Assembly: GCF_024502345.1 (NCBI RefSeq)
Contig: NZ_JALDNN010000001.1
Reading direction: 5' to 3' (one strand)
Length of the DNA: 64,000 nucleotides
Source of the DNA: Escherichia coli
GTDB taxonomy: Bacteria > Pseudomonadota > Gammaproteobacteria > Enterobacterales > Enterobacteriaceae
The position numbers and the translations under genes were made by a program. This document shows, piece after piece, positions 439-35,158 of the stretch. The first letter of the stretch is position 1. Each line of letters opens with the position of its first letter. Below the pieces are notes generated by a model. The model saw only the letters and a list, made by a program, of their open reading frames with translations. It did not search any database and was not told the DNA's origin.

Positions 439-1200
439 ATGAGGATTTGCAGCGACCAACCTTGTATTGTTTTATTGACTGAAAAAGATGTCTGGATAAG
501 GGTGAATGGGAAAGAACCTATTAGCCTTAAAGCTAACCATATGGCGTTATTAAATTGTGAAAATAATATTATCGACGTCTCCTCTCTTAACAACACTTTG
601 GTTGCTCATATTAGTCACGACATCATCAAAGATTACCTCCGGTTTCTGAATAAAGATCTCTCGCAAATACCAGTATGGCAACGTAGCGCTACGCCCATAC
701 TCACCCTGCCATGCCTGACGCCAGACGTCTTTCGCGTTGCCGCGCAACACAGCATGATGCCCGCAGAAACTGAGTCAGAAAAGGAACGAACACGCGCATT
801 ATTATTCACGGTGCTATCCCGTTTTCTCGACAGTAAAAAATTCCTTTCATTAATGATGTATATGTTACGTAATTGTGTAAGTGACAGCGTTTATCAAATT
901 ATTGAAAGCGATATTCACAAAGACTGGAATCTTAGTATGGTAGCCAGTTGTTTATGTCTTAGCCCAAGTCTGTTAAAGAAAAAGCTGAAAAGCGAAAACA
1001 CCAGTTATAGCCAAATAATCACCACCTGCCGCATGCGTTATGCCGTAAATGAATTAATGATGGACGGTAAAAATATCTCTCAGGTATCACAGTCCTGCGG
1101 CTACAACAGTACGTCGTACTTTATTTCTGTCTTTAAAGACTTCTACGGTATGACGCCGCTGCATTATGTTAGTCAGCACAGAGAACGCACTGTCGCCTGA
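439..1200 (+). CDS. adiY: AraC-family transcriptional activator of the arginine decarboxylase system
   Basis: 253-aa ORF with C-terminal AraC-type HTH region; position between adiA and adiC. Confidence 0.9.
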   Translation: MRICSDQPCIVLLTEKDVWIRVNGKEPISLKANHMALLNCENNIIDVSSLNNTLVAHISHDIIKDYLRFLNKDLSQIPVWQRSATPILTLPCLTPDVFRVAAQHSMMPAETESEKERTRALLFTVLSRFLDSKKFLSLMMYMLRNCVSDSVYQIIESDIHKDWNLSMVASCLCLSPSLLKKKLKSENTSYSQIITTCRMRYAVNELMMDGKNISQVSQSCGYNSTSYFISVFKDFYGMTPLHYVSQHRERTVA

Positions 1201-1336
1201 TTTTTAACCTTAACGAAGAGCTATATTAATAACGGCATCAGCGATAACCCGGTCGATAATAATTCAACTATCGAATGCAGGCGTATGATATGACGTAATT
1301 TATTGTCACGAAGCTCGCCTTCGCAGGAGTTTAATT

Positions 1337-2674
1337 ATGTCTTCGGATGCTGATGCTCACAAAGTGGGCTTAATCCCCGTCACCCTGATGGTGTCGGGGA
1401 ATATTATGGGGTCAGGTGTTTTTCTGTTACCTGCAAACCTGGCCTCTACTGGCGGGATTGCCATTTATGGATGGTTGGTGACGATTATCGGTGCACTGGG
1501 GCTCTCGATGGTATACGCCAAAATGTCGTTCCTCGACCCAAGTCCTGGTGGTTCTTACGCTTACGCCCGCCGCTGCTTTGGCCCGTTTCTCGGTTATCAA
1601 ACCAACGTCCTCTACTGGCTGGCCTGCTGGATCGGCAATATCGCCATGGTGGTCATTGGCGTAGGATATTTAAGTTACTTCTTCCCGATTCTGAAAGATC
1701 CATTGGTATTAACCATCACCTGCGTCGTGGTGCTGTGGATCTTCGTCCTGCTGAACATTGTCGGTCCGAAAATGATCACCCGTGTGCAGGCCGTTGCCAC
1801 CGTGCTGGCGCTGATCCCCATCGTCGGGATTGCCGTATTTGGCTGGTTCTGGTTTCGTGGTGAAACCTATATGGCGGCATGGAACGTCAGCGGCCTGGGC
1901 ACCTTCGGTGCAATTCAAAGTACCCTTAACGTTACGCTGTGGTCGTTCATCGGTGTGGAAAGTGCCTCCGTTGCCGCAGGTGTGGTGAAAAACCCGAAAC
2001 GCAACGTCCCTATAGCCACCATTGGTGGGGTATTGATTGCCGCCGTTTGCTATGTGCTCTCCACCACCGCGATTATGGGGATGATCCCTAATGCCGCACT
2101 GCGCGTTTCTGCCTCGCCATTCGGTGATGCCGCACGGATGGCGTTGGGTGACACCGCCGGGGCCATCGTTTCCTTCTGCGCAGCTGCGGGTTGCTTAGGT
2201 TCACTGGGCGGCTGGACATTGCTGGCGGGTCAAACGGCGAAAGCCGCTGCCGATGACGGACTGTTCCCACCGATTTTTGCCCGTGTAAATAAAGCGGGTA
2301 CGCCAGTGGCGGGGCTGATTATCGTCGGTATTTTGATGACCATCTTCCAGCTCAGCAGCATTTCACCAAACGCGACCAAAGAATTCGGTCTGGTTTCTTC
2401 CGTCTCGGTCATCTTTACACTGGTGCCATATCTTTACACCTGTGCGGCGTTACTGCTGCTCGGACACGGTCACTTTGGTAAAGCACGCCCGGCATATCTG
2501 GCAGTTACTACCATTGCCTTCCTCTACTGCATCTGGGCCGTGGTGGGGTCCGGGGCGAAAGAGGTTATGTGGTCATTTGTCACCCTGATGGTCATCACCG
2601 CCATGTATGCGCTGAATTACAACCGGCTGCATAAAAACCCGTATCCCTTAGATGCACCAATAAGCAAAGATTAA
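1337..2674 (+). CDS. adiC: Arginine:agmatine antiporter (APC superfamily)
   Basis: 445-aa polytopic membrane ORF; recognised N-terminus and length. Confidence 0.93.
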
Positions 2675-2777: not shown

Positions 2778-4421
2778 ATGTTGAAGCGCCTACTAAAAAG
2801 ACCCTCTTTGAATTTACTCGCCTGGCTATTGTTGGCCGCTTTTTATATCTCTATCTGCCTGAATATTGCCTTTTTTAAACAGGTGTTGCAGGCGCTGCCG
2901 CTGGACTCGCTGCATACCGTACTGGTTTTCTTGTCGATGCCGGTCGTCGCCTTCAGCGTGATTAATATTGTCCTGACACTAAGCTCTTTCTTATGGCTTA
3001 ATCGACCGCTGGCCTGCCTGTTTATTCTGGTTGGCGCGGCTGCACAATATTTCATAATGACTTACGGCATCGTCATCGACCGCTCGATGATTGCCAATAT
3101 TATTGATACCACTCCGGCAGAAAGCTATGCGCTGATGACACCGCAAATGTTATTAACGCTGGGATTCAGCGGCGTGCTTGCTGCGCTGATTGCCTGCTGG
3201 ATTAAAATCAAACCTGCCACCTCGCGTCTGCGCAGTGTTCTTTTCCGTGGAGCCAATATTCTGGTTTCTGTACTGCTGATTTTGCTGGTAGCCGCACTAT
3301 TTTATAAAGACTACGCCTCGTTGTTCCGCAACAACAAAGAGCTGGTGAAGTCCTTAAGCCCCTCTAACAGCATTGTTGCCAGCTGGTCATGGTACTCCCA
3401 TCAGCGACTGGCAAATCTGCCGCTGGTGCGAATTGGTGAAGACGCGCACCGCAACCCGTTAATGCAGAACGAAAAACGTAAAAATTTGACCATCCTGATT
3501 GTCGGCGAAACCTCGCGGGCGGAGAACTTCTCCCTCAACGGCTACCCGCGTGAAACTAACCCGCGGCTGGCGAAAGATAACGTGGTCTATTTCCCTAATA
3601 CCGCATCTTGCGGCACGGCAACGGCAGTTTCAGTACCGTGCATGTTCTCGGATATGCCGCGAGAGCACTACAAAGAAGAGCTGGCACAGCACCAGGAAGG
3701 CGTGCTGGATATCATTCAGCGAGCGGGCATCAACGTGCTGTGGAATGACAACGATGGCGGCTGTAAAGGTGCCTGCGACCGCGTGCCTCACCAGAACGTC
3801 ACCGCGCTGAATCTGCCTGATCAGTGCATCAACGGCGAATGCTATGACGAAGTGCTGTTCCACGGGCTGGAAGAGTACATCAATAACCTGCAGGGTGATG
3901 GCGTGATTGTCTTACACACCATCGGCAGCCACGGTCCGACCTATTACAACCGCTATCCGCCGCAGTTCAGGAAATTTACCCCAACCTGCGACACCAATGA
4001 GATCCAGACCTGTACCAAAGAGCAACTGGTGAACACTTACGACAACACGCTGGTTTACGTCGACTATATTGTTGATAAAGCGATTAATCTGCTGAAAGAA
4101 CATCAGGATAAATTTACCACCAGCCTGGTTTATCTTTCTGACCACGGTGAATCGTTAGGTGAAAATGGCATCTATCTGCACGGTCTGCCTTATGCCATCG
4201 CCCCGGATAGCCAAAAACAGGTGCCGATGCTGCTGTGGCTGTCGGAGGATTATCAAAAACGGTATCAGGTTGACCAGAACTGCCTGCAAAAACAGGCGCA
4301 AACGCAACACTATTCACAAGACAATTTATTCTCCACGCTATTGGGATTAACTGGCGTTGAGACGAAGTATTACCAGGCTGCGGATGATATTCTGCAAACT
4401 TGCAGGAGAGTGAGTGAATGA
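2778..4421 (+). CDS. eptA: Lipid A phosphoethanolamine transferase
   Basis: 547-aa product from ATG 2778 (tool ORF begins 15 codons earlier); N-terminal membrane region plus sulfatase-like domain; overlaps basR start by 4 nt. Confidence 0.92.
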
Positions 4422-5086
4422 AAATTCTGATTGTTGAAGACGATACGCTGTTATTGCAGGGACTGATTCTGGCGGCGCAAACCGAAGGCTACGCGTGCGA
4501 TGGCGTGACAACCGCGCGGATGGCGGAACAAAGCCTTGAGGCCGGTCATTACAGCCTGGTGGTACTGGATTTAGGGTTACCCGACGAAGATGGACTGCAT
4601 TTTCTCGCCCGTATCCGGCAGAAAAAATATACCCTGCCGGTACTGATCCTCACCGCTCGCGATACGCTGACCGACAAAATCGCCGGGCTGGATGTCGGTG
4701 CCGATGACTATCTGGTGAAGCCTTTTGCGCTGGAAGAGTTACATGCCCGTATCCGCGCCCTGCTACGACGCCATAATAATCAGGGCGAAAGTGAGCTGAT
4801 TGTTGGCAATCTGACGCTGAATATGGGTCGCCGTCAGGTATGGATGGGCGATGAAGAGTTGATTCTGACGCCCAAAGAATATGCTCTGCTGTCACGGTTA
4901 ATGCTCAAAGCAGGCAGTCCGGTGCATCGGGAAATTCTCTACAACGACATCTATAACTGGGACAATGAACCCTCGACCAACACCCTGGAAGTGCATATCC
5001 ACAATCTGCGCGACAAAGTGGGCAAAGCCCGTATCCGCACCGTGCGCGGCTTTGGCTATATGCTTGTCGCGAATGAGGAAAACTAA
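4418..5086 (+). CDS. basR: Two-component response regulator (OmpR family)
   Basis: 222-aa ORF with receiver domain and winged-helix C-terminus. Confidence 0.95.
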
Positions 5087-5095
5087 TTGAATCTG

Positions 5096-6187
5096 ATGCG
5101 TTTTCTGCGCCGACCAATATCGCTGCGCCAACGGCTGATATTGACCATCGGGGCCATTTTGTTGGTGTTTGAGCTGATCAGCGTCTTCTGGCTATGGCAT
5201 GAAAGTACCGAGCAGATTCAGCTGTTTGAGCAGGCGCTACGCGACAATCGCAACAACGATCGCCACATCATGCGTGAGATCCGCGAGGCGGTCGCCAGCC
5301 TGATTGTCCCCGGCGTCTTTATGGTCAGCCTGACGCTATTTATCTGCTATCAGGCGGTACGCCGCATCACCCGCCCGCTGGCGGAGCTGCAAAAAGAGCT
5401 GGAAGCGCGCACCGCCGACAACTTAACGCCCATTGCCATTCACAGCGCCACCCTCGAAATCGAAGCGGTGGTTTCAGCGTTAAACGATCTGGTCAGTCGC
5501 CTGACCAGCACGCTGGATAACGAAAGGTTGTTTACCGCTGACGTCGCGCACGAACTGCGAACGCCACTGGCGGGGGTACGTTTGCATCTGGAACTGCTGG
5601 CGAAAACGCATCACATTGATGTAGCACCGTTAGTGGCACGGCTTGATCAGATGATGGAGAGCGTCTCCCAGCTGCTGCAACTGGCGCGTGCCGGACAGTC
5701 ATTTTCTTCCGGTAATTATCAACATGTAAAACTGCTGGAAGATGTCATTCTCCCCTCGTATGACGAACTCAGTACCATGCTCGACCAGCGACAGCAAACC
5801 CTGCTATTGCCAGAGAGCACCGCCGACATCACCGTTCAGGGTGATGCAACCCTGCTGCGGATGTTATTGCGAAACCTGGTAGAAAACGCCCATCGTTACA
5901 GCCCGCAAGGCAGCAACATTATGATTAAGCTGCAAGAAGATGGCGGAGCGGTCATGGCAGTTGAAGATGAAGGACCAGGTATTGATGAGAGTAAATGCGG
6001 GGAGTTGAGTAAAGCGTTTGTACGTATGGACAGCCGTTATGGCGGGATTGGTCTGGGGTTAAGTATTGTCAGCCGCATTACACAGTTGCATCACGGGCAG
6101 TTTTTCCTGCAAAACCGGCAAGAGACTTCCGGCACGCGGGCCTGGGTACGGCTGAAGAAAGATCAGAACGTGGCAAACCAGATATAA
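5096..6187 (+). CDS. basS: Two-component sensor histidine kinase
   Basis: HisKA H-box (ADVAHELRTPL) and ATPase motifs; start at ATG 5096 or TTG 5087. Confidence 0.92.
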   Translation: MRFLRRPISLRQRLILTIGAILLVFELISVFWLWHESTEQIQLFEQALRDNRNNDRHIMREIREAVASLIVPGVFMVSLTLFICYQAVRRITRPLAELQKELEARTADNLTPIAIHSATLEIEAVVSALNDLVSRLTSTLDNERLFTADVAHELRTPLAGVRLHLELLAKTHHIDVAPLVARLDQMMESVSQLLQLARAGQSFSSGNYQHVKLLEDVILPSYDELSTMLDQRQQTLLLPESTADITVQGDATLLRMLLRNLVENAHRYSPQGSNIMIKLQEDGGAVMAVEDEGPGIDESKCGELSKAFVRMDSRYGGIGLGLSIVSRITQLHHGQFFLQNRQETSGTRAWVRLKKDQNVANQI

Positions 6188-6252
6188 AGAAAGCTGCTGA
6201 CCACCAGCACGCTGAACACGGTAGTTAAACTTTCATAAACACGGTTTTTCAT
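6163..6252 (-). CDS. pmrR: 29-aa small membrane protein PmrR, antisense-overlapping the basS 3' end
   Basis: Manual translation gives MKNRVYESLTTVFSVLVVSSFLYIWFATF; 25-nt convergent overlap with basS. Confidence 0.7.
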   Translation of the reverse strand: MKNRVYESLTTVFSVLVVSSFLYIWFATF

Positions 6253-6296
6253 TGCACTCTCCTCCGTTAACCTGGAGGAGAGTATGCGCGTCAGAG

Positions 6297-6313
6297 ATTA
6301 AGTGAACCTTAAG
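6297..6313 (-). promoter_or_regulatory. BasR/PmrA box upstream of pmrR
   Basis: On the minus strand reads CTTAAG-N5-CTTAAT, about 45 bp upstream of the pmrR ATG. Confidence 0.5.
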
Positions 6314-6322
6314 AGTTCAATT

Positions 6323-6351
6323 GGCCTGATAAGACAGCGTTACATCAGGCC
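6323..6351. repeat. REP-like palindrome between basS/pmrR and proP
   Basis: ggcctgat...atcaggcc inverted repeat. Confidence 0.5.
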
Positions 6352-6363
6352 ATCCGTTTCAGC

Positions 6364-7866
6364 TTATTCATCAATTCGCGGATGTTGCTGCACCAGGCGG
6401 GTACGTTTCGCCTGCAAATCGGCAATCTCGTGGTCAATATCATCGATTTTCTGCTCGATATTATCGTAATGCTCGACGAGAATTTCCTTCGCTTCCTGTA
6501 TATCTGACGCCGCCGGTGTTGCACCTTTCAACGGACGATTTGCCGTCTCTTTCATGGTTACGCCGGTGATTAAACCAACCACCGCCACTACCATCAGGTA
6601 ATAGGCTGGCATCATCAGATTCTGCGAGCTTTCGACCAGCCAGGCCGCCAGTGTTGGCGTCAGACCGGCAACCAGCACCGAAATATTAAATGCCGCCGCC
6701 AGCGCGCTGTAACGGATATGCGTCGGGAACATCGCTGGCAAGGTAGAAGCCATAACGCCCGTAAAGCAGTTAAGGATCACCGCCAGCATCAGTAACCCGG
6801 CAAAAATCAGGCCGATGACGTTACTGTTAATCAGAATAAACGCCGGGATCGCCAACACAAACAGTGCAACACTACCAAGTAGCACAAACGGACGACGGCC
6901 AAAACGGTCACTCAGCAAGCCCATCACCGGCTGGACAAACAGCATACCGATCATAATGGCGATAATAATCAGCACCCCGTGGTCTTCGGAGTAATGCAGG
7001 TTATGCGACAAATAACTCGGCATATAGGTCAGCAACATGTAGTAAGTCACGTTGGTGGCAATTACCAGACCAATACATGTCAACAGGCTGCGCCAGTATT
7101 TAGTGGCAATCTCTTTAAACGAGACTTTCGGGCCATCCTGCAAACCTTCGCGGTCGCCCTGTTCCAGTTTATCAACATGCTGCTGGAACGCCGGAGTTTC
7201 TTCCAGCGCATGGCGCAGGTAAAGCCCGATAATCCCTAACGGCAGAGCAATAAAGAACGGAATACGCCAGCCCCAGTCGAGGAAGTTCGCTTCGCCGACA
7301 ATGGTCGAAATTAACACCACCACGCCCGCACCCAGCACAAACCCGGCAATAGAACCGAAGTCCAGCCAGCTGCCCATAAAGCCACGTTTACGGTCAGGGG
7401 AGTATTCCGCAACAAATATCGACGCCCCGGTATATTCACCGCCGACCGAGAAACCTTGTGCCATCTTACAGATCAACAGCAGAATCGGTGCCCAAATACC
7501 AATCGTGTCGTAGGACGGTATTAAGCCAATACAGAACGTACTGATCGACATAATCACAATAGTGATAGCGAGGATCTTCTGGCGACCATATTTATCGCCC
7601 AACATACCAAAGAAGAGTCCGCCAAGCGGTCGAATCAGAAAGGGAACGGAGAAAGTGGCAAGTGCAGCAACCATCTGCACGCTGGGGTCAGCCCCCGGGA
7701 AAAAAACTTTACCTAATGCGTAAGCAACAAAACCATAAACACCAAAATCAAACCATTCCATTGCATTACCCAGTGATGCTGCGGTAATGGCTTTACGCAG
7801 TTTACCGTCATCAATAATGGTGACATCACGAAGGGTAATTGGTTTTACTTTTTTCCTTTTCAGCAT
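6364..7866 (-). CDS. proP: Proline/glycine betaine:H+ symporter (MFS osmosensor)
   Basis: 500-aa product from internal start MLKRKKVKPITLRD; MFS topology with C-terminal coiled-coil tail. Confidence 0.95.
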   Translation of the reverse strand: MLKRKKVKPITLRDVTIIDDGKLRKAITAASLGNAMEWFDFGVYGFVAYALGKVFFPGADPSVQMVAALATFSVPFLIRPLGGLFFGMLGDKYGRQKILAITIVIMSISTFCIGLIPSYDTIGIWAPILLLICKMAQGFSVGGEYTGASIFVAEYSPDRKRGFMGSWLDFGSIAGFVLGAGVVVLISTIVGEANFLDWGWRIPFFIALPLGIIGLYLRHALEETPAFQQHVDKLEQGDREGLQDGPKVSFKEIATKYWRSLLTCIGLVIATNVTYYMLLTYMPSYLSHNLHYSEDHGVLIIIAIMIGMLFVQPVMGLLSDRFGRRPFVLLGSVALFVLAIPAFILINSNVIGLIFAGLLMLAVILNCFTGVMASTLPAMFPTHIRYSALAAAFNISVLVAGLTPTLAAWLVESSQNLMMPAYYLMVVAVVGLITGVTMKETANRPLKGATPAASDIQEAKEILVEHYDNIEQKIDDIDHEIADLQAKRTRLVQQHPRIDE

Positions 7867-8129
7867 AGCTTTCCTCGCAGAGTTGGCCCATTTCCGCAAA
7901 CGCCAGAAAAATCAGCGCGACGGCCGCAAAAGGGGAGCGGGAATTGCAGGATGCAATCTCTGTAACAAGCGTAGCGGGTTTGCTTACACCCTCCGGTTAA
8001 GGAATGTACAATCAAACCAGTTGACGCCTGAATTGGGCAGTTAGTGACCTTTTTACCCTACCAGTGTTTAAATTTGTGATCAACTTCACACATGGATTTC
8101 GTTTAGGACTCATTGATGTAACTAATTAT

Positions 8130-9008
8130 TTACGCCAAATTTACAGAGAAGATTTCCTCGACCATTGCCCCCACCAAACGCTGCGCTGAACAGAGTCGTG
8201 GCATCCCCAGCGCGACAGTTTGCCAACGTTGGGTCACTGACCAGCAAACGGGTTGTTTATCTGCCGTGGTCCACTTTCCCAGCCAACTTAAAAAATCAGC
8301 ATGATCCCCGCCCGTCGGAACGGTCGAAGAGGCAAACCACTGATGGTAATAGTGACGCGTGGTCGGGGCCGCATTGATACTTTCTGCCAGATGTTGTGTC
8401 GCTTTCACGCGCAAATCACCCAGCAACAACGCCACCGCTTGCGGGCTTCCCAGACGGCAGGCATCGCCAAATGCCCCCCAGCGCAACTCTTCGAGAACGA
8501 TAAAACAGCGCCCAGGCAACGACCAGGCGTTATACGCCCCAGCACGCCAGCGGGTAAAAATTTGCTCGCTCTGTTCACCTGCCTGCACCAGTAGGCCCCG
8601 TTGCGTTAACGCCTTTTCCTTCCAGCGACAACGGGCTGAAAACCACTCATACAAGGCGGCAATTTGCTGGGGGAGCTCCGGGAAAGCAGAGTGCTGGCGG
8701 TGATCCATTTTTTGCAGCAGTGCCAGATGCTGCGCGATCTGCGTCAGTGCCAGATGACCGGGATCCAGCATCGACGCCAGTTTTTCCACCAATGTCAAAC
8801 GCAGGCTAAGCGGCGCATTTAACATTCCGCCGTTCGTCCATGTCTGAAGCTGCACGCGCGCAAGAAGTTCCTGCATCAGTCGTTCACGAAACTGCTGCTG
8901 ATGGGCTTGTGGAAGGCGGGCATCATCGCCCTGCGCCAGATCCACTAAAAAGCGCGGATGAACCGACTCCAGCACGCGACCGGGGCCGTCCAGTAACGTC
9001 TTGGTCAA
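8130..9008 (-). CDS. yjcZ: Uncharacterised protein co-transcribed with crfC
   Basis: 292-aa ORF overlapping the crfC stop by 4 nt. Confidence 0.85.
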   Translation of the reverse strand: MTKTLLDGPGRVLESVHPRFLVDLAQGDDARLPQAHQQQFRERLMQELLARVQLQTWTNGGMLNAPLSLRLTLVEKLASMLDPGHLALTQIAQHLALLQKMDHRQHSAFPELPQQIAALYEWFSARCRWKEKALTQRGLLVQAGEQSEQIFTRWRAGAYNAWSLPGRCFIVLEELRWGAFGDACRLGSPQAVALLLGDLRVKATQHLAESINAAPTTRHYYHQWFASSTVPTGGDHADFLSWLGKWTTADKQPVCWSVTQRWQTVALGMPRLCSAQRLVGAMVEEIFSVNLA

Positions 9009-11233
9009 TATCGTTCTGCCGTGAAAAGTGTTTGAATATCATCGCGTAACAGCTGAGCGTCGGTGTAAATCCAGCCGTGAGTCATCACAGTCTGCTGCAA
9101 TTGCTGTTGCATCAGCCTGACCACCGATTCATTTTGTTGACGCAGAGCCAGACTTTCGCGTAAACGCGTCTGTAATTCCGTCAAACATGAAGCGAACTCA
9201 GCGAAAAAAGTATTCATGCCTGCCGTAACAGATTCATCGACCTGCTCTGCCAGAACTTTAGCCATTTGTTGGCAATAGAGATCGACTTCTGCGCTTAATG
9301 CTCGTTGCAACACACTGTAATCAACCGTTTCTGTCGGGGATTTCTCATTTCCCCGTCCCCAGTCGGGCTGATTCAACCAGCGCGAAAAAGTCTCACGCAC
9401 AACGCCTAAACGCGTGCTCTGCTCGTCCGTTGCTTCCTGGCGCGAAATGACTTCACTGAACAGCTGGCGAGTGTTGAAGTGGGGAACTACGCCGTGAAAA
9501 ACAGGAAAATGAAACCCAGGACGAAACCCTGACTCGCTCAATTCTATTTTGATTTGTTGCTCAATGGGGCGAATAACATCGGTTAACACCCGGCAAAGGG
9601 TGGATTCCAGCTCGGCAAAACGCAGCGTAAAGTCGCGACTGATGGTGTTCTGCGCCGTCTGTAACAGTGTCTCACAGCGGGTACGAATCTCGCTTAATGA
9701 CCCCGAATCATCCTGAAACAAGGCGGCAAACTGCGCATTCAGCGCATCTTGCTGTTGACGCAGAAAGTGGTTGGCGGAGGTCAGGGCCAGCTCGATTTCA
9801 TGTTTAATCTCGCCGCTCACCTGCGCCTGATTGAGTTGCAATAGCTGCAAACTTTCTTCGACCTGATGGATATTTTGCCGCAATTGTTCACAAGCGACGT
9901 TTAACCCGTGCGCACGAAAATCCAGGTATTCCCGCGCCTGCTGCGCGTAATTCAACAGTTTATGCGCGGCAGATCGCAGAGCATACAACGAGGCGTTAGC
10001 GTAAGCGGCATGAAGCAACGCCTGAATTGGCTGGGCGAACAGCGAATCTTCCCACAACTGATCGGCAGCATGACGAATATGTTCGAGGTCCGCCAGATCG
10101 GCATGACGCCAGCGCCTGCCGAGCGCGGCATGGGCAAAATCTTCCACCCAGCGTTGTTGCTCTGGCGGTGGTAACTTACCGTTGTTGGCTAACTCATGGC
10201 GCGCCCGATTCGCCAGGTAGCCCCACATCGACGACACCGGAAATATCTGCTGTGGCGTAATACAGCCTTTCATCAGCGTCCCGGAAATCAGTGCCCGCAC
10301 CTGGTCGGCGTCGTCACTGTTACGATCCTGTTGATCGAACTTATTGACCAGCACATACAGCGGCACCGATTGCCCCACCGCCAAAATCGCCTCACGGACC
10401 TCTTCATCGGAGATCGATTTCAGTTGCGTATAATCCAGCACCGCCAGTACCGCCGAGGCGCGAGCCATCTGCTGGTTAAGCATTTTTTGCAGATGCGGTT
10501 GCCCGGCTTCATTTGGCCCGGGGGTATCCAGTAACGTCAACTGACCGGGATAACTCTCCAGCCCCGCCAGATGGACAAACTCCACTTCAATCACGGGAAT
10601 ATGCTCAATGGCGGCGTAAGCAGAAAAAGGAAAATCGACGTCCAGCGCCTTCGCCAGTCGCACTAAATCATTCAAACTTTTCAGACAATGAAAAATAGGC
10701 TGGGCACCCAGATAATATTTTTCGAAAGCGACGCCATTTTCGATCCGCTGCATAAGCGCACGCATATCTTTATCTATTTCCAGCACATCGGTCAGATGCT
10801 TAATATCGCAATCACGCAGGCGCTGTTGTAATTGTTGAATTAAACAATCGATTGGCGCGACATGTGAAAAATGCAGTACCGGTTCCTTTTGCCCGGGCGT
10901 ATGGCGAATAAGCGTTGGCAGCGCAGTCATAGGGCGATTGCGATTAGGCAGAACCTCCGTACCAACAATGGCATTAATGGTGGTTGATTTCCCTGCTTTC
11001 ATAGTACCGACAATCGCCAGCACCATTTCCAGTTGGGAAATTTTACGCAACTCATTATTCAGCATCGCGTGACGCTCGGCGATATTAGGCTGACTCCAGG
11101 GTAAAGCCAGTTGTGGCGCATCATCTCCGGGTACAGAGAGAGGCATTTTTTCCAGTAACTGCAACTGTTGGCGAGAAAGCTGTAACAGGCGTTCAGCCTC
11201 CTGACTTAACTCATACAGGGTCTGTGTGTACAT
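9005..11233 (-). CDS. crfC: Dynamin-like GTPase (clamp-binding sister replication fork colocalisation protein)
   Basis: 742-aa ORF with P-loop GTMKAGKSTT and coiled-coil-rich C-terminus. Confidence 0.9.
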   Translation of the reverse strand: MYTQTLYELSQEAERLLQLSRQQLQLLEKMPLSVPGDDAPQLALPWSQPNIAERHAMLNNELRKISQLEMVLAIVGTMKAGKSTTINAIVGTEVLPNRNRPMTALPTLIRHTPGQKEPVLHFSHVAPIDCLIQQLQQRLRDCDIKHLTDVLEIDKDMRALMQRIENGVAFEKYYLGAQPIFHCLKSLNDLVRLAKALDVDFPFSAYAAIEHIPVIEVEFVHLAGLESYPGQLTLLDTPGPNEAGQPHLQKMLNQQMARASAVLAVLDYTQLKSISDEEVREAILAVGQSVPLYVLVNKFDQQDRNSDDADQVRALISGTLMKGCITPQQIFPVSSMWGYLANRARHELANNGKLPPPEQQRWVEDFAHAALGRRWRHADLADLEHIRHAADQLWEDSLFAQPIQALLHAAYANASLYALRSAAHKLLNYAQQAREYLDFRAHGLNVACEQLRQNIHQVEESLQLLQLNQAQVSGEIKHEIELALTSANHFLRQQQDALNAQFAALFQDDSGSLSEIRTRCETLLQTAQNTISRDFTLRFAELESTLCRVLTDVIRPIEQQIKIELSESGFRPGFHFPVFHGVVPHFNTRQLFSEVISRQEATDEQSTRLGVVRETFSRWLNQPDWGRGNEKSPTETVDYSVLQRALSAEVDLYCQQMAKVLAEQVDESVTAGMNTFFAEFASCLTELQTRLRESLALRQQNESVVRLMQQQLQQTVMTHGWIYTDAQLLRDDIQTLFTAERY

Positions 11234-11634
11234 AGAAAATTCTTCCTTAAAGCAAATTTTGTTACTTTTATTTAGCCAGATTGTTTTTGAGTTCTGTTTT
11301 CGGCTTTTATAATTACTGCAAGAAATAATTTTATATTTAGCGTGTTGTTTTTTATTATAATAAATAACGTCTTCCGATACGTTTAAAACGTCAGAAAGAT
11401 AAAAATATCATGTGAATTAAAAAAAGAACAAGTAGAGCATTAACATTATCTTAAATAATAAATAGAGGCAAAAAGATTATTTTCTTTTTGCGTTCCCTTT
11501 CAAATGAAAACGATCGTCGTCTAAAATCAGCAGTACCCCCGACAAACTCAGGGATTTTGTGTATAATTGCGGCCTTTTTCGGCAATCTGCCGTTTTTTGG
11601 CGCTTTTGCCCTGCTGACTTTTGAGGAAATCCAC

Positions 11635-11970
11635 ATGTCATTACCACACTGCCCAAAATGCAACTCCGAATACACCTACGAAGATAACGGCATGTACATC
11701 TGCCCGGAATGTGCCTACGAATGGAACGACGCAGAACCTGCACAGGAAAGCGACGAGCTGATCGTTAAAGATGCTAACGGCAATCTGCTGGCTGACGGCG
11801 ACAGCGTTACCATCATTAAAGATCTGAAGGTGAAAGGTAGCTCTTCGATGCTGAAAATTGGCACCAAAGTGAAAAACATCCGCCTGGTTGAAGGCGACCA
11901 TAACATCGATTGCAAAATCGACGGTTTTGGTCCGATGAAACTGAAATCTGAGTTTGTGAAAAAGAACTGA
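11635..11970 (+). CDS. yjdM: PhnA-like zinc-ribbon protein
   Basis: 111-aa product [26 protein letters not shown]...; the tool ORF from 11488 is an upstream extension with no support. Confidence 0.88.
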
Positions 11971-11987
11971 TTGTATTGTGATCGGTA

Positions 11988-12165
<178 letters not shown>

Positions 12166-12227
12166 CCTCTCATCTGTATAAATTTCGAACTACACTTAAC
12201 TGGCTTCTCTTAACTGAGGTCACCATC

Positions 12228-12671
12228 ATGCCGTTAAGTCCCTACCTCTCTTTTGCCGGTAACTGTGCCGACGCAATTGCTTATTATCAACGTACGTTGG
12301 GCGCTGAACTGCTCTATAAAATCAGCTTCGGCGAAATGCCAAAATCAGCGCAGGACAGCGCCGAGAACTGCCCTTCCGGAATGCAATTTCCCGATACCGC
12401 CATCGCCCACGCCAATGTGCGCATTGCCGGAAGCGACATCATGATGAGCGATGCCATGCCGTCAGGAAAAGCCAGCTACTCCGGCTTTACGCTGGTGCTC
12501 GATTCGCAACAGGTCGAAGAAGGAAAACGCTGGTTTGACAATCTTGCCGCTAACGGAAAAATCGAAATGGCCTGGCAGGAAACTTTCTGGGCGCATGGCT
12601 TTGGCAAAGTCACCGATAAATTTGGCGTACCGTGGATGATTAATGTCGTCAAACAACAACCAACGCAATAA
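12228..12671 (+). CDS. yjdN: VOC/glyoxalase-like protein (PhnB-like)
   Basis: 147-aa ORF in the conserved position upstream of phnC. Confidence 0.85.
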   Translation: MPLSPYLSFAGNCADAIAYYQRTLGAELLYKISFGEMPKSAQDSAENCPSGMQFPDTAIAHANVRIAGSDIMMSDAMPSGKASYSGFTLVLDSQQVEEGKRWFDNLAANGKIEMAWQETFWAHGFGKVTDKFGVPWMINVVKQQPTQ

Positions 12672-12726
12672 TCCGCCGGGAGGCCCGCCCTCCCGCACTG
12701 TCATCGAATTCCCGTTAACTCTTCAT

Positions 12727-14635: not shown

Positions 14636-14728
14636 CGTAGGTCGGATAAGACGCCCCGGCGTCGCATCCGACAATGTGCAGGCGTTGATGCCGGATGCGG
14701 TGCAAGCACCTTATCCGGCCTACAGACC
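14636..14728. repeat. REP pair between phnD and phnE
   Basis: gtcggataagacg...gcgtcgcatccgac and gccggatgcgg...ccttatccggcc palindromic units. Confidence 0.75.
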
Positions 14729-31765: not shown

Positions 31766-31895
31766 AATGTCTGCCGCGTGATGGCTGTCACGCGGTATTT
31801 CGTTTCGTCACGTCAAAACTGACGACAGCCTGTTTTTCGTCAGAGTTTTGAATAAATAGTGCCCGTAATATCAGGGAATGACCCCAAATAAAATG

Positions 31896-31911
31896 TGGCA
31901 TAAAAGATGCA
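31896..31911 (+). promoter_or_regulatory. Sigma54 (-24/-12) promoter of fdhF
   Basis: TGGCAT-N6-TGCAT with GG and GC 12 bp apart, about 50 bp upstream of the fdhF ATG; upstream inverted repeats near 31795-31850 are candidate FhlA sites. Confidence 0.6.
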
Positions 31912-31962
31912 TACTGTAGTCGAGAGCGCGTATGCGTGATTTGATTAACTGGAGCGAGACCG

Positions 31963-34110
31963 ATGAAAAAAGTCGTCACGGTTTGCCCCTATTGCGCATC
32001 AGGTTGCAAAATCAACCTGGTCGTCGATAACGGCAAAATCGTCCGGGCGGAGGCAGCGCAGGGGAAAACCAACCAGGGTACCCTGTGTCTGAAGGGTTAT
32101 TATGGCTGGGATTTCATTAACGATACCCAGATCCTGACCCCGCGCCTGAAAACCCCCATGATCCGTCGCCAGCGTGGCGGCAAACTCGAACCTGTTTCCT
32201 GGGATGAGGCACTGAATTACGTTGCCGAGCGCCTGAGCGCCATCAAAGAGAAGTACGGTCCGGATGCCATCCAGACGACCGGCTCCTCGCGTGGTACGGG
32301 TAACGAAACCAACTATGTAATGCAAAAATTTGCGCGCGCCGTTATTGGTACCAATAACGTTGACTGCTGCGCTCGTGTCTGACACGGCCCATCGGTTGCA
32401 GGTCTGCACCAATCGGTCGGTAATGGCGCAATGAGCAATGCTATTAACGAAATTGATAATACCGATTTAGTGTTCGTTTTCGGGTACAACCCGGCGGATT
32501 CCCACCCAATCGTGGCGAATCACGTAATTAACGCTAAACGTAACGGGGCGAAAATTATCGTCTGCGATCCGCGCAAAATTGAAACCGCGCGCATTGCTGA
32601 CATGCACATTGCACTGAAAAACGGCTCGAACATCGCGCTGTTGAATGCGATGGGCCATGTCATTATTGAAGAAAATCTGTATGACAAAGCGTTCGTCGCT
32701 TCACGTACAGAAGGCTTTGAAGAGTATCGTAAAATCGTTGAAGGCTACACACCGGAGTCGGTTGAAGATATCACCGGCGTCAGCGCCAGTGAGATTCGTC
32801 AGGCGGCACGGATGTATGCCCAGGCGAAAAGCGCCGCCATCCTGTGGGGCATGGGTGTAACCCAGTTCTACCAGGGCGTGGAAACCGTGCGTTCTCTGAC
32901 CAGCCTCGCGATGCTGACCGGTAACCTCGGTAAGCCGTATGCGGGTGTAAACCCGGTTCGTGGTCAGAACAACGTGCAGGGTGCCTGCGATATGGGCGCG
33001 CTGCCGGATACGTATCCGGGATACCAGTACGTGAAAGATCCGGCTAACCGCGAGAAATTCGCCAAAGCCTGGGGCGTGGAAAGCCTGCCTGCTCATACCG
33101 GTTATCGCATCAGCGAGCTGCCGCACCGCGCAGCGCATGGCGAAGTGCGTGCCGCGTACATTATGGGCGAAGATCCGCTACAAACTGACGCGGAGCTGTC
33201 GGCAGTACGTAAAGCCTTTGAAGATCTGGAACTGGTCATCGTTCAGGACATCTTTATGACCAAAACCGCGTCGGCGGCGGATGTTATTTTACCGTCAACG
33301 TCGTGGGGCGAGCATGAAGGCGTGTTTACTGCGGCTGACCGTGGCTTCCAGCGTTTCTTCAAAGCAGTTGAACCGAAATGGGATCTGAAAACGGACTGGC
33401 AAATCATCAGTGAAATCGCCACCCGTATGGGTTATCCGATGCACTACAACAACACCCAGGAGATCTGGGATGAGTTGCGTCATCTGTGCCCGGATTTCTA
33501 CGGTGCGACTTACGAGAAAATGGGCGAACTGGGCTTCATTCAGTGGCCTTGCCGCGATACTTCAGATGCCGATCAGGGGACTTCTTATCTGTTTAAAGAG
33601 AAGTTTGATACCCCGAACGGTCTGGCGCAGTTCTTCACCTGCGACTGGGTAGCGCCAATCGACAAACTCACCGACGAGTACCCGATGGTACTGTCAACGG
33701 TGCGTGAAGTTGGTCACTACTCTTGCCGTTCGATGACCGGTAACTGTGCGGCACTGGCGGCGCTGGCTGATGAACCTGGCTACGCACAAATCAATACCGA
33801 AGACGCCAAACGTCTGGGTATTGAAGATGAGGCATTGGTTTGGGTGCACTCGCGTAAAGGCAAAATTATCACCCGTGCGCAGGTCAGCGATCGTCCGAAC
33901 AAAGGAGCGATTTACATGACCTACCAGTGGTGGATTGGTGCCTGTAACGAGCTGGTTACCGAAAACTTAAGCCCGATTACGAAAACGCCGGAATACAAAT
34001 ACTGCGCCGTGCGCGTCGAGCCGATCGCCGATCAGCGCGCCGCCGAGCAGTACGTGATTGACGAGTACAACAAGTTGAAAACTCGCCTGCGCGAAGCGGC
34101 ACTGGCGTAA
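31963..34110 (+). CDS. fdhF: Formate dehydrogenase H, selenocysteine-containing molybdoenzyme
   Basis: Two tool ORFs (31963..32382 and 32431..34110) are one frame joined through in-frame TGA at 32380-32382 (codon 140); N-terminal Cys cluster CPYCASGC. Confidence 0.93.
32380..32425 (+). other. UGA selenocysteine codon plus downstream SECIS hairpin
   Basis: In-frame TGA immediately followed by cacggcccatcggttgcaggtctgcaccaatcggtcgg, which can fold as a stem-loop. Confidence 0.7.
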
Positions 34111-34123
34111 TACAGTCCTTTCT

Positions 34124-34152
34124 ACAGCCTCCTTTCGGAGGCTGTTTTTTTA
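34124..34152 (+). terminator. Rho-independent terminator after fdhF
   Basis: Stem acagcctcc/ggaggctgt followed by a 7-T run. Confidence 0.7.
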
Positions 34153-34894: not shown

Positions 34895-35158
34895 GTAGGC
34901 CTGATAAGACGCGTTAAGCGTCGCATCAGGCGTTGATGTCGGATGCGGCGTAAACGCCTTATCCGACCTACAAAATCACGCTAAATCAGGCTATTGCGCT
35001 GTCTGGCGTAGGCCTGATAAGACGCGGCAAGCGTCGCATCAGGCATTGATGTCGGATGCGGCGTAAACGCCTTATCCGACCTACAAAATCACGCTAAATC
35101 AGGCTATTGCGCTGTCTGACGTAGGCCTGATAAGACGCACCAGCGTCGCATCAGGCAT
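34895..35158. repeat. Tandem BIME/REP array (two ~114-bp units plus a partial third)
   Basis: Near-identical units taggcctgataagacgc...gcgtcgcatcaggc...gtcggatgcggcgtaaacgccttatccgacctacaaaatcacgctaaatcaggctattgcgctgtctg. Confidence 0.85.

Follow-up and report, generated by a model that had tools for sequence, protein, structure and literature searches.

The window, that is, the whole 64-kb stretch of Escherichia coli DNA analysed here, almost certainly carries an intact fdhF gene in which the UGA at codon 140 is recoded as selenocysteine by means of a SECIS element. This recoding site is already known, fully described and ordinary. Among bacteria, fdhF is the founding case of selenocysteine recoding, and its product FDH-H is the subunit of the formate hydrogenlyase complex that contains selenium and molybdenum. 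The reading frame, the UGA codon, the match and the fold of the SECIS element, the identity of the product and the conservation of the locus were all observed directly and are described below, while SelB binding, delivery of tRNA(Sec) and the catalytic role of Sec140 are established knowledge. The only unusual detail of the locus is a single amino acid exchange, H326Y.

Two open reading frames form one fdhF frame

A mechanical list of open reading frames contains two ORFs on the plus strand, both beginning with ATG, which cover 31963..32382 (139 aa) and 32431..34110 (559 aa). The start positions of the 139-aa and the 559-aa ORF are both 1 mod 3, and they hence share a common frame. Translation of 31963..34110 as one frame revealed 716 codons with a terminal TAA at 34108..34110 and a sole internal stop, the TGA at codon 140. 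A preliminary description of this DNA had already joined 31963..32382 and 32431..34110 into one frame through the TGA at 32380..32382, codon 140, and all of its coordinates were right; the downstream ORF was indeed found in the frame of the upstream one. The ORF list restarts only at 32431 because the 16 codons in 32383..32430 contain no in-frame ATG, GTG or TTG. In an experimental study of fdhF, the UGA was likewise placed at position 140, with a SECIS spanning codons 141-153 (PMC4513850). The coding features are as follows.

31963..34110, plus strand: fdhF coding sequence, 715 codons plus TAA, with the UGA at codon 140 read through (one frame, RefSeq CDS, PDB 1AA6, TIGR01591)
32380..32382, plus strand: UGA codon 140, the selenocysteine codon (Sec140, followed by His141), from the sequence and the non-standard residue X at 140 in the PDB chain

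In RefSeq, the same 2148 nt are annotated as one CDS, fdhF, between mdtP (upstream) and yjcO (downstream), and the gene does not bear a pseudogene flag.

The full-length product is formate dehydrogenase H

For protein searches residue 140 was entered as Cys. The 715-residue product aligned over residues 1-715 to residues 1-715 of the E. coli FDH-H entries PDB 1AA6, 1FDI, 1FDO, 2IV2 and 7Z0T. Its sole difference from the solved chain, which has a non-standard residue X at 140, is H326Y. The NCBIfam model TIGR01591 (formate dehydrogenase subunit alpha) matched with 1093.1 bits against a cut-off of 666.25, along profile positions 1-672 of 672. Enzymes of the FdnG type matched the product in part only (PDB 1KQF, E 1e-44; TIGR01553, 248.7 bits against a cut-off of 814). 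The naming of the gene as fdhF in the preliminary description is thus borne out by the TIGR01591 score of 1093 bits, by near-identity to PDB 1AA6 and by the single RefSeq fdhF CDS between mdtP and yjcO.

A residue check found Cys8, Cys11, Cys15, Cys42, Lys44, His141 and Arg333 all present in the product. Cys8, Cys11, Cys15 and Cys42 are known to be the residues of the [4Fe-4S] cluster, and Lys44, His141 and Arg333 to have roles in electron transfer or the active site. Sec140 belongs to the molybdenum active site of FDH-H. The gene is the same as E. coli K-12 fdhF in its 715 codons, the UGA at 140, the neighbours mdtP and yjcO, the [4Fe-4S] cysteines and the active-site residues. What differs from known E. 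coli fdhF and FDH-H is H326Y (CAT to TAT at 32938), together with a few synonymous changes; from fdhF of E. coli 88-3493 the gene differs at six nucleotides.

Precomputed Pfam hits place PF04879 and PF00384 on the 139-aa piece, and PF00384 and PF01568 on the 559-aa piece. The Molybdopterin domain PF00384 is cut by the UGA, and this arrangement therefore fits a single protein, not two genes.

A SECIS element directly follows the UGA

The Rfam model RF01988 (SECIS_2) matched at 32375..32429 with 87.1 bits against a gathering score of 70 and was covered in full (model positions 1-55 of 55). The E-value of this match was 1.1e-18 in a 4-kb scan and 1.8e-17 for the whole window, and in the Rfam scan of all 64 kb it was the only SECIS match. 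The element agrees with the SECIS_2 consensus at every upper-case consensus position of the alignment shown. At the same site RF01989 (SECIS_3) reached 35.8 bits, which is under its gathering score of 63. Two nested features were delimited.

32375..32429, plus strand: SECIS as modelled by Rfam, with outer helix GUGUC/GGCGC and main hairpin (RF01988 SECIS_2, 87.1 bits)
32394..32410, plus strand: upper 17-nt minihelix GGUUGCAGGUCUGCACC, the SelB-binding part (fold and review PMC8659212; invariant in Raoultella and Citrobacter)

The minimum free energy fold of 32375..32429 gives back the SECIS_2 helices. The segment 32380..32425 folds to one hairpin of -14.9 kcal/mol with the apical loop GGUC and one bulged U; its lower stem is interrupted and extends back to the A of the UGA. 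When the U of the UGA is counted as 1, GGUUGCAGGUCUGCACC occupies nt 15-31 and starts 11 nt past the UGA, the apical loop GGUC lies at nt 22-25 (32401..32404), and the bulged U at 32396/32397 is U17 or U18. According to a review, the E. coli fdhF SECIS comprises 40 nt in all; its upper stem-loop of 17 nt spans nt 15-31 at a distance of 11 nt from the UGA, and U17, G23 and U24 are the critical bases (PMC8659212). In the window, the 17-nt upper stem-loop likewise occupies nt 15-31, the bulged U is at 17/18 and the apical loop includes G23 and U24, so that the element has the geometry which this review gives for the fdhF SECIS. The preliminary description had proposed that the sequence right after the TGA is able to fold as a SECIS and should be compared with the canonical fdhF element. 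The match to the full SECIS_2 model (87.1 bits) corroborates this proposal, and the GGUC loop, the bulged U and the 11-nt spacing all agree with the published element (PMC8659212).

The stability of the hairpin is a different matter. Among 200 shuffles of 32380..32425, 22 were equally stable (z -1.33), and 5-12% of the same-length windows inside fdhF were at least as stable as the SECIS hairpin. With a z of -1.33 and a rank only in the top 5-12% of fdhF windows, folding energy was dropped as decisive evidence for the SECIS. The SECIS_2 match is far beyond chance, whereas the folding energy alone is not, and since hairpin stability alone is unremarkable, the case for the SECIS rests on the specific SECIS_2 match. 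This also bears on the suggestion that the lack of a stable hairpin just 3' of the UGA would speak against recoding. A hairpin is present (-14.9 kcal/mol), but this test discriminates poorly, as the hairpin has only moderate stability (z -1.33), and it is the covariance-model match that identifies the element.

Conservation of the recoding site

Of the 5426 complete E. coli genomes, 5419 contain the 2.5 kb around fdhF, and the best match is 99.7% identical. A segment of 96 nt centred on the recoding site was found in the E. coli collection at 5420 places, and in 5392 of the 5420 records its identity was 99% or higher. Four of these places belong to sequences labelled as plasmids, and two copies occur in one genome. 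The selenocysteine UGA at codon 140 was also found in E. coli 88-3493, Raoultella and Citrobacter.

The comparative set consisted of E. coli, Raoultella and Citrobacter and is thus small and made up of close relatives. fdhF of Raoultella ornithinolytica differs from that of the window at 353 nt, and fdhF on a Citrobacter koseri-type contig at 210 nt. Despite these differences, both Raoultella and Citrobacter retain the TGA at codon 140 and an identical 17-nt upper helix, and the changes that their SECIS elements do carry are confined to the lower and outer helices. They comprise A to G at position 33, which turns an A-U into a G-U pair, A to U at position 12, by which one pair is lost, and U to C at position -3, which turns a U-G into a C-G pair. 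Compensatory double changes in the SECIS helices were not seen among E. coli, Raoultella and Citrobacter, as the set is small and close. Changes at third codon positions affected 2 of the 14 SECIS codons and 276 of the 702 codons in the rest of fdhF in one relative (p = 0.046), and 1 of 14 versus 185 of 702 in the second (p = 0.086). These counts are no more than suggestive of fewer third-position changes in the SECIS codons than elsewhere in fdhF.

Alternative readings of the UGA codon

If the TGA were a true stop, the locus would be an fdhF pseudogene created by a nonsense mutation, or else two genes of 139 and 559 residues. This is what the mechanical ORF list appears to give with its two ORFs, and in public gene calls each fragment is entered as a protein of its own. 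However, 5419 E. coli genomes and two further genera share the TGA at this codon, the TGA splits one Pfam domain, and a full-score SECIS comes after it. The solved structure, moreover, is one chain of 715 residues with a special residue at 140. The 559-aa ORF does not have an upstream region of its own either, as just 48 in-frame bases separate the TGA from its ATG. We therefore regard a true stop as extremely improbable.

It is conceivable in principle that the UGA is read without the selenocysteine machinery, for instance by near-cognate tRNA(Trp) or tRNA(Cys), with the hairpin only slowing the ribosome. Low-level misreading of UGA that is independent of a SECIS does exist and was measured as a control (PMC4513850). 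Against such a reading, the hairpin is a specific SelB-binding SECIS of modest stability and not just any stable structure, and the solved enzyme has a non-standard residue at 140 that was identified as selenocysteine (PMC4513850). Near-cognate decoding thus has a hardly better than negligible chance of explaining the locus, and recoding as selenocysteine, against which no observation speaks, is the reading that we follow below.

The H326Y allele

Codon 326 of fdhF is TAT (Tyr) at 32938..32940, where the solved structure and E. coli 88-3493 have His. The residue lies seven residues ahead of the catalytic Arg333. The 5426 complete RefSeq E. coli genomes gave no match to a 55-nt probe with the T allele at its centre, but 4291 of them matched the control probe, which carries the C allele. 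The H326Y allele recurs in draft and metagenome assemblies. One of the assemblies with this allele, GCA_050029375.1, shares 5.68 kb of identical sequence with the window, whereas another contig with it has 18 further nucleotide differences in fdhF. Position 326 is Ser in Raoultella and Citrobacter, and Gly in four other solved formate dehydrogenases in the alignments shown. H326Y is probably neutral, since position 326 tolerates change in these relatives (Ser or Gly). An effect of the exchange on FDH-H activity, oxygen sensitivity or partner binding is very unlikely.

Predicted regulatory elements flanking fdhF

By established knowledge, transcription of fdhF is under the control of sigma-54, FhlA and formate. 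The sequence around the gene contains the following elements, of which the promoter and the activating region are candidates.

31803..31851, plus strand: candidate FhlA upstream activating region, with TTTCGTCA twice and the inverted repeat TCAAAACT/AGTTTTGA (from the repeats)
31896..31911, plus strand: putative sigma-54-type -24/-12 promoter element TGGCATAAAAGATGCA, 2 mismatches to TGGCAC-N5-TTGCA
31951..31954, plus strand: Shine-Dalgarno sequence GGAG, 8 nt ahead of the ATG (direct reading)
34124..34145, plus strand: intrinsic terminator hairpin followed by TTTTTTT, 14 nt past the fdhF stop, with 9 pairs (6 of them G-C) and a loop of 4

Upstream of fdhF there is also a terminator-like hairpin past mdtP, at 31772..31797. 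The copies of TTTCGTCA start at 31803 and 31835, and the arms of the inverted repeat TCAAAACT/AGTTTTGA are at 31813..31820 and 31844..31851. The repeat-rich stretch 31803..31851 sits about 45-110 bp upstream of the -24/-12 element at 31896..31911. Matches to the sigma-54 consensus in the window (20 observed versus 28 expected) were not above chance. A scan with the FhlA palindrome consensus (PMC7658346), in which 3 mismatches were permitted, gave 117 matches, one of them at 31811..31824, and was too permissive to inform. Pattern scans alone cannot establish sigma-54 or FhlA sites, because these match counts are uninformative. Binding of the RpoN holoenzyme in the fdhF-mdtP spacer has been detected by gSELEX (PMC8743547), and we infer that this binding belongs to the predicted site at 31896..31911. 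Control of fdhF by FhlA and formate has been described as well (PMC11841067). It is plausible that 31803..31851 is an FhlA enhancer and 31896..31911 the fdhF promoter.

Other features in the window

Further RNA features and one antisense ORF were recorded in the window.

6156..6321, minus strand: STnc630, enterobacterial small RNA, full-length match (178.5 bits)
52925..53065, plus strand: sraL, enterobacterial small RNA, full-length match (150.9 bits)
11988..12064, 12088..12164, 14640..14720, 34898..34968, 35011..35081 and 45615..45685: naRNA4 (CssrE), intergenic palindromic repeats of the REP type (Rfam)
31999..32412, minus strand: antisense ORF of 137 aa with a TTG start, over the 5' part of fdhF including the SECIS (ORF list)

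For naRNA4 (CssrE), seven Rfam matches were above threshold at the six positions; the repeat at 34898..34968 scores on both strands, and only its minus strand reaches the gathering score. The antisense ORF of 137 aa has most likely arisen by chance within a coding region that is rich in G+C. In E. coli 88-3493, the closest annotated genome, a gene cluster lies between yjdP and yjcS (3538..12679 of the fetched locus), and its region corresponds to the left part of the window. The cluster encodes a hybrid sensor kinase, a sugar ABC transporter, an isomerase of the D-lyxose/D-mannose family, a ketose-bisphosphate aldolase, a kinase and a response regulator.

A model for decoding of UGA 140

When a ribosome nears UGA 140, the mRNA just downstream would fold as the SECIS hairpin. 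SelB in complex with GTP and selenocysteyl-tRNA(Sec) would bind the apical part of this hairpin, with its GGUC loop and bulged U, and would bring tRNA(Sec) to the UGA in the A site, so that selenocysteine is inserted. Translation would then go on to the TAA and yield the 715-residue enzyme with Sec140 at its molybdenum centre, and ribosomes without SelB service would terminate at the UGA. Recoding of the fdhF UGA has been measured at about 30-40% (PMC4513850). The genes selA, selB, selC and selD were not found within the 64-kb window, and the window does not contain a tRNA gene.

The SECIS elements of fdnG and fdoG, the genes of the other E. coli selenoproteins, follow the same principle, an in-frame UGA with a SelB-binding hairpin immediately after it within the coding sequence. 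They, and RF01989 (SECIS_3), differ from the fdhF element in sequence and in details of the helices. Archaea and eukaryotes likewise recode UGA as selenocysteine with the help of a structured mRNA element and a specialised elongation factor. Their SECIS elements are located in untranslated regions and act at a distance. In contrast, the fdhF SECIS lies within the reading frame, 11 nt past the UGA, and also codes for residues 141-153 (PMC4513850).

Annotation of the split gene

The expectation that automated annotation would mis-call a truncated gene was correct in part. Generic ORF callers do split fdhF, but the NCBI pipeline PGAP annotates the full CDS. At least 1000 contigs have exactly the 139-aa fragment on record, which goes by names such as 'Formate dehydrogenase H'. 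Exact copies of the 559-aa fragment are recorded for 79 contigs, and its 90% cluster has 11,377 members from the genera Escherichia, Raoultella, Citrobacter, Klebsiella and Enterobacter. On the fetched contigs both fragments were called as separate genes. In Raoultella ornithinolytica GCA_901420735.1, only the 559-aa C-terminal piece of fdhF is recorded as a gene, an oddity that concerns 1033..1452 of the locus. The E. coli record NZ_AP045057.1 labels fdhF as 'formate dehydrogenase N subunit alpha, selenocysteine-containing'.

The practical value of the site lies in annotation quality control and in its use as a positive control. Pipelines based on ORFs split fdhF into products of 139 and 559 aa, and public protein collections contain thousands of such fragments. 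A model that is aware of structure is needed here, because hairpin stability alone would not flag a SECIS. A scan for the combination of same frame, TGA and SECIS repairs such split calls.
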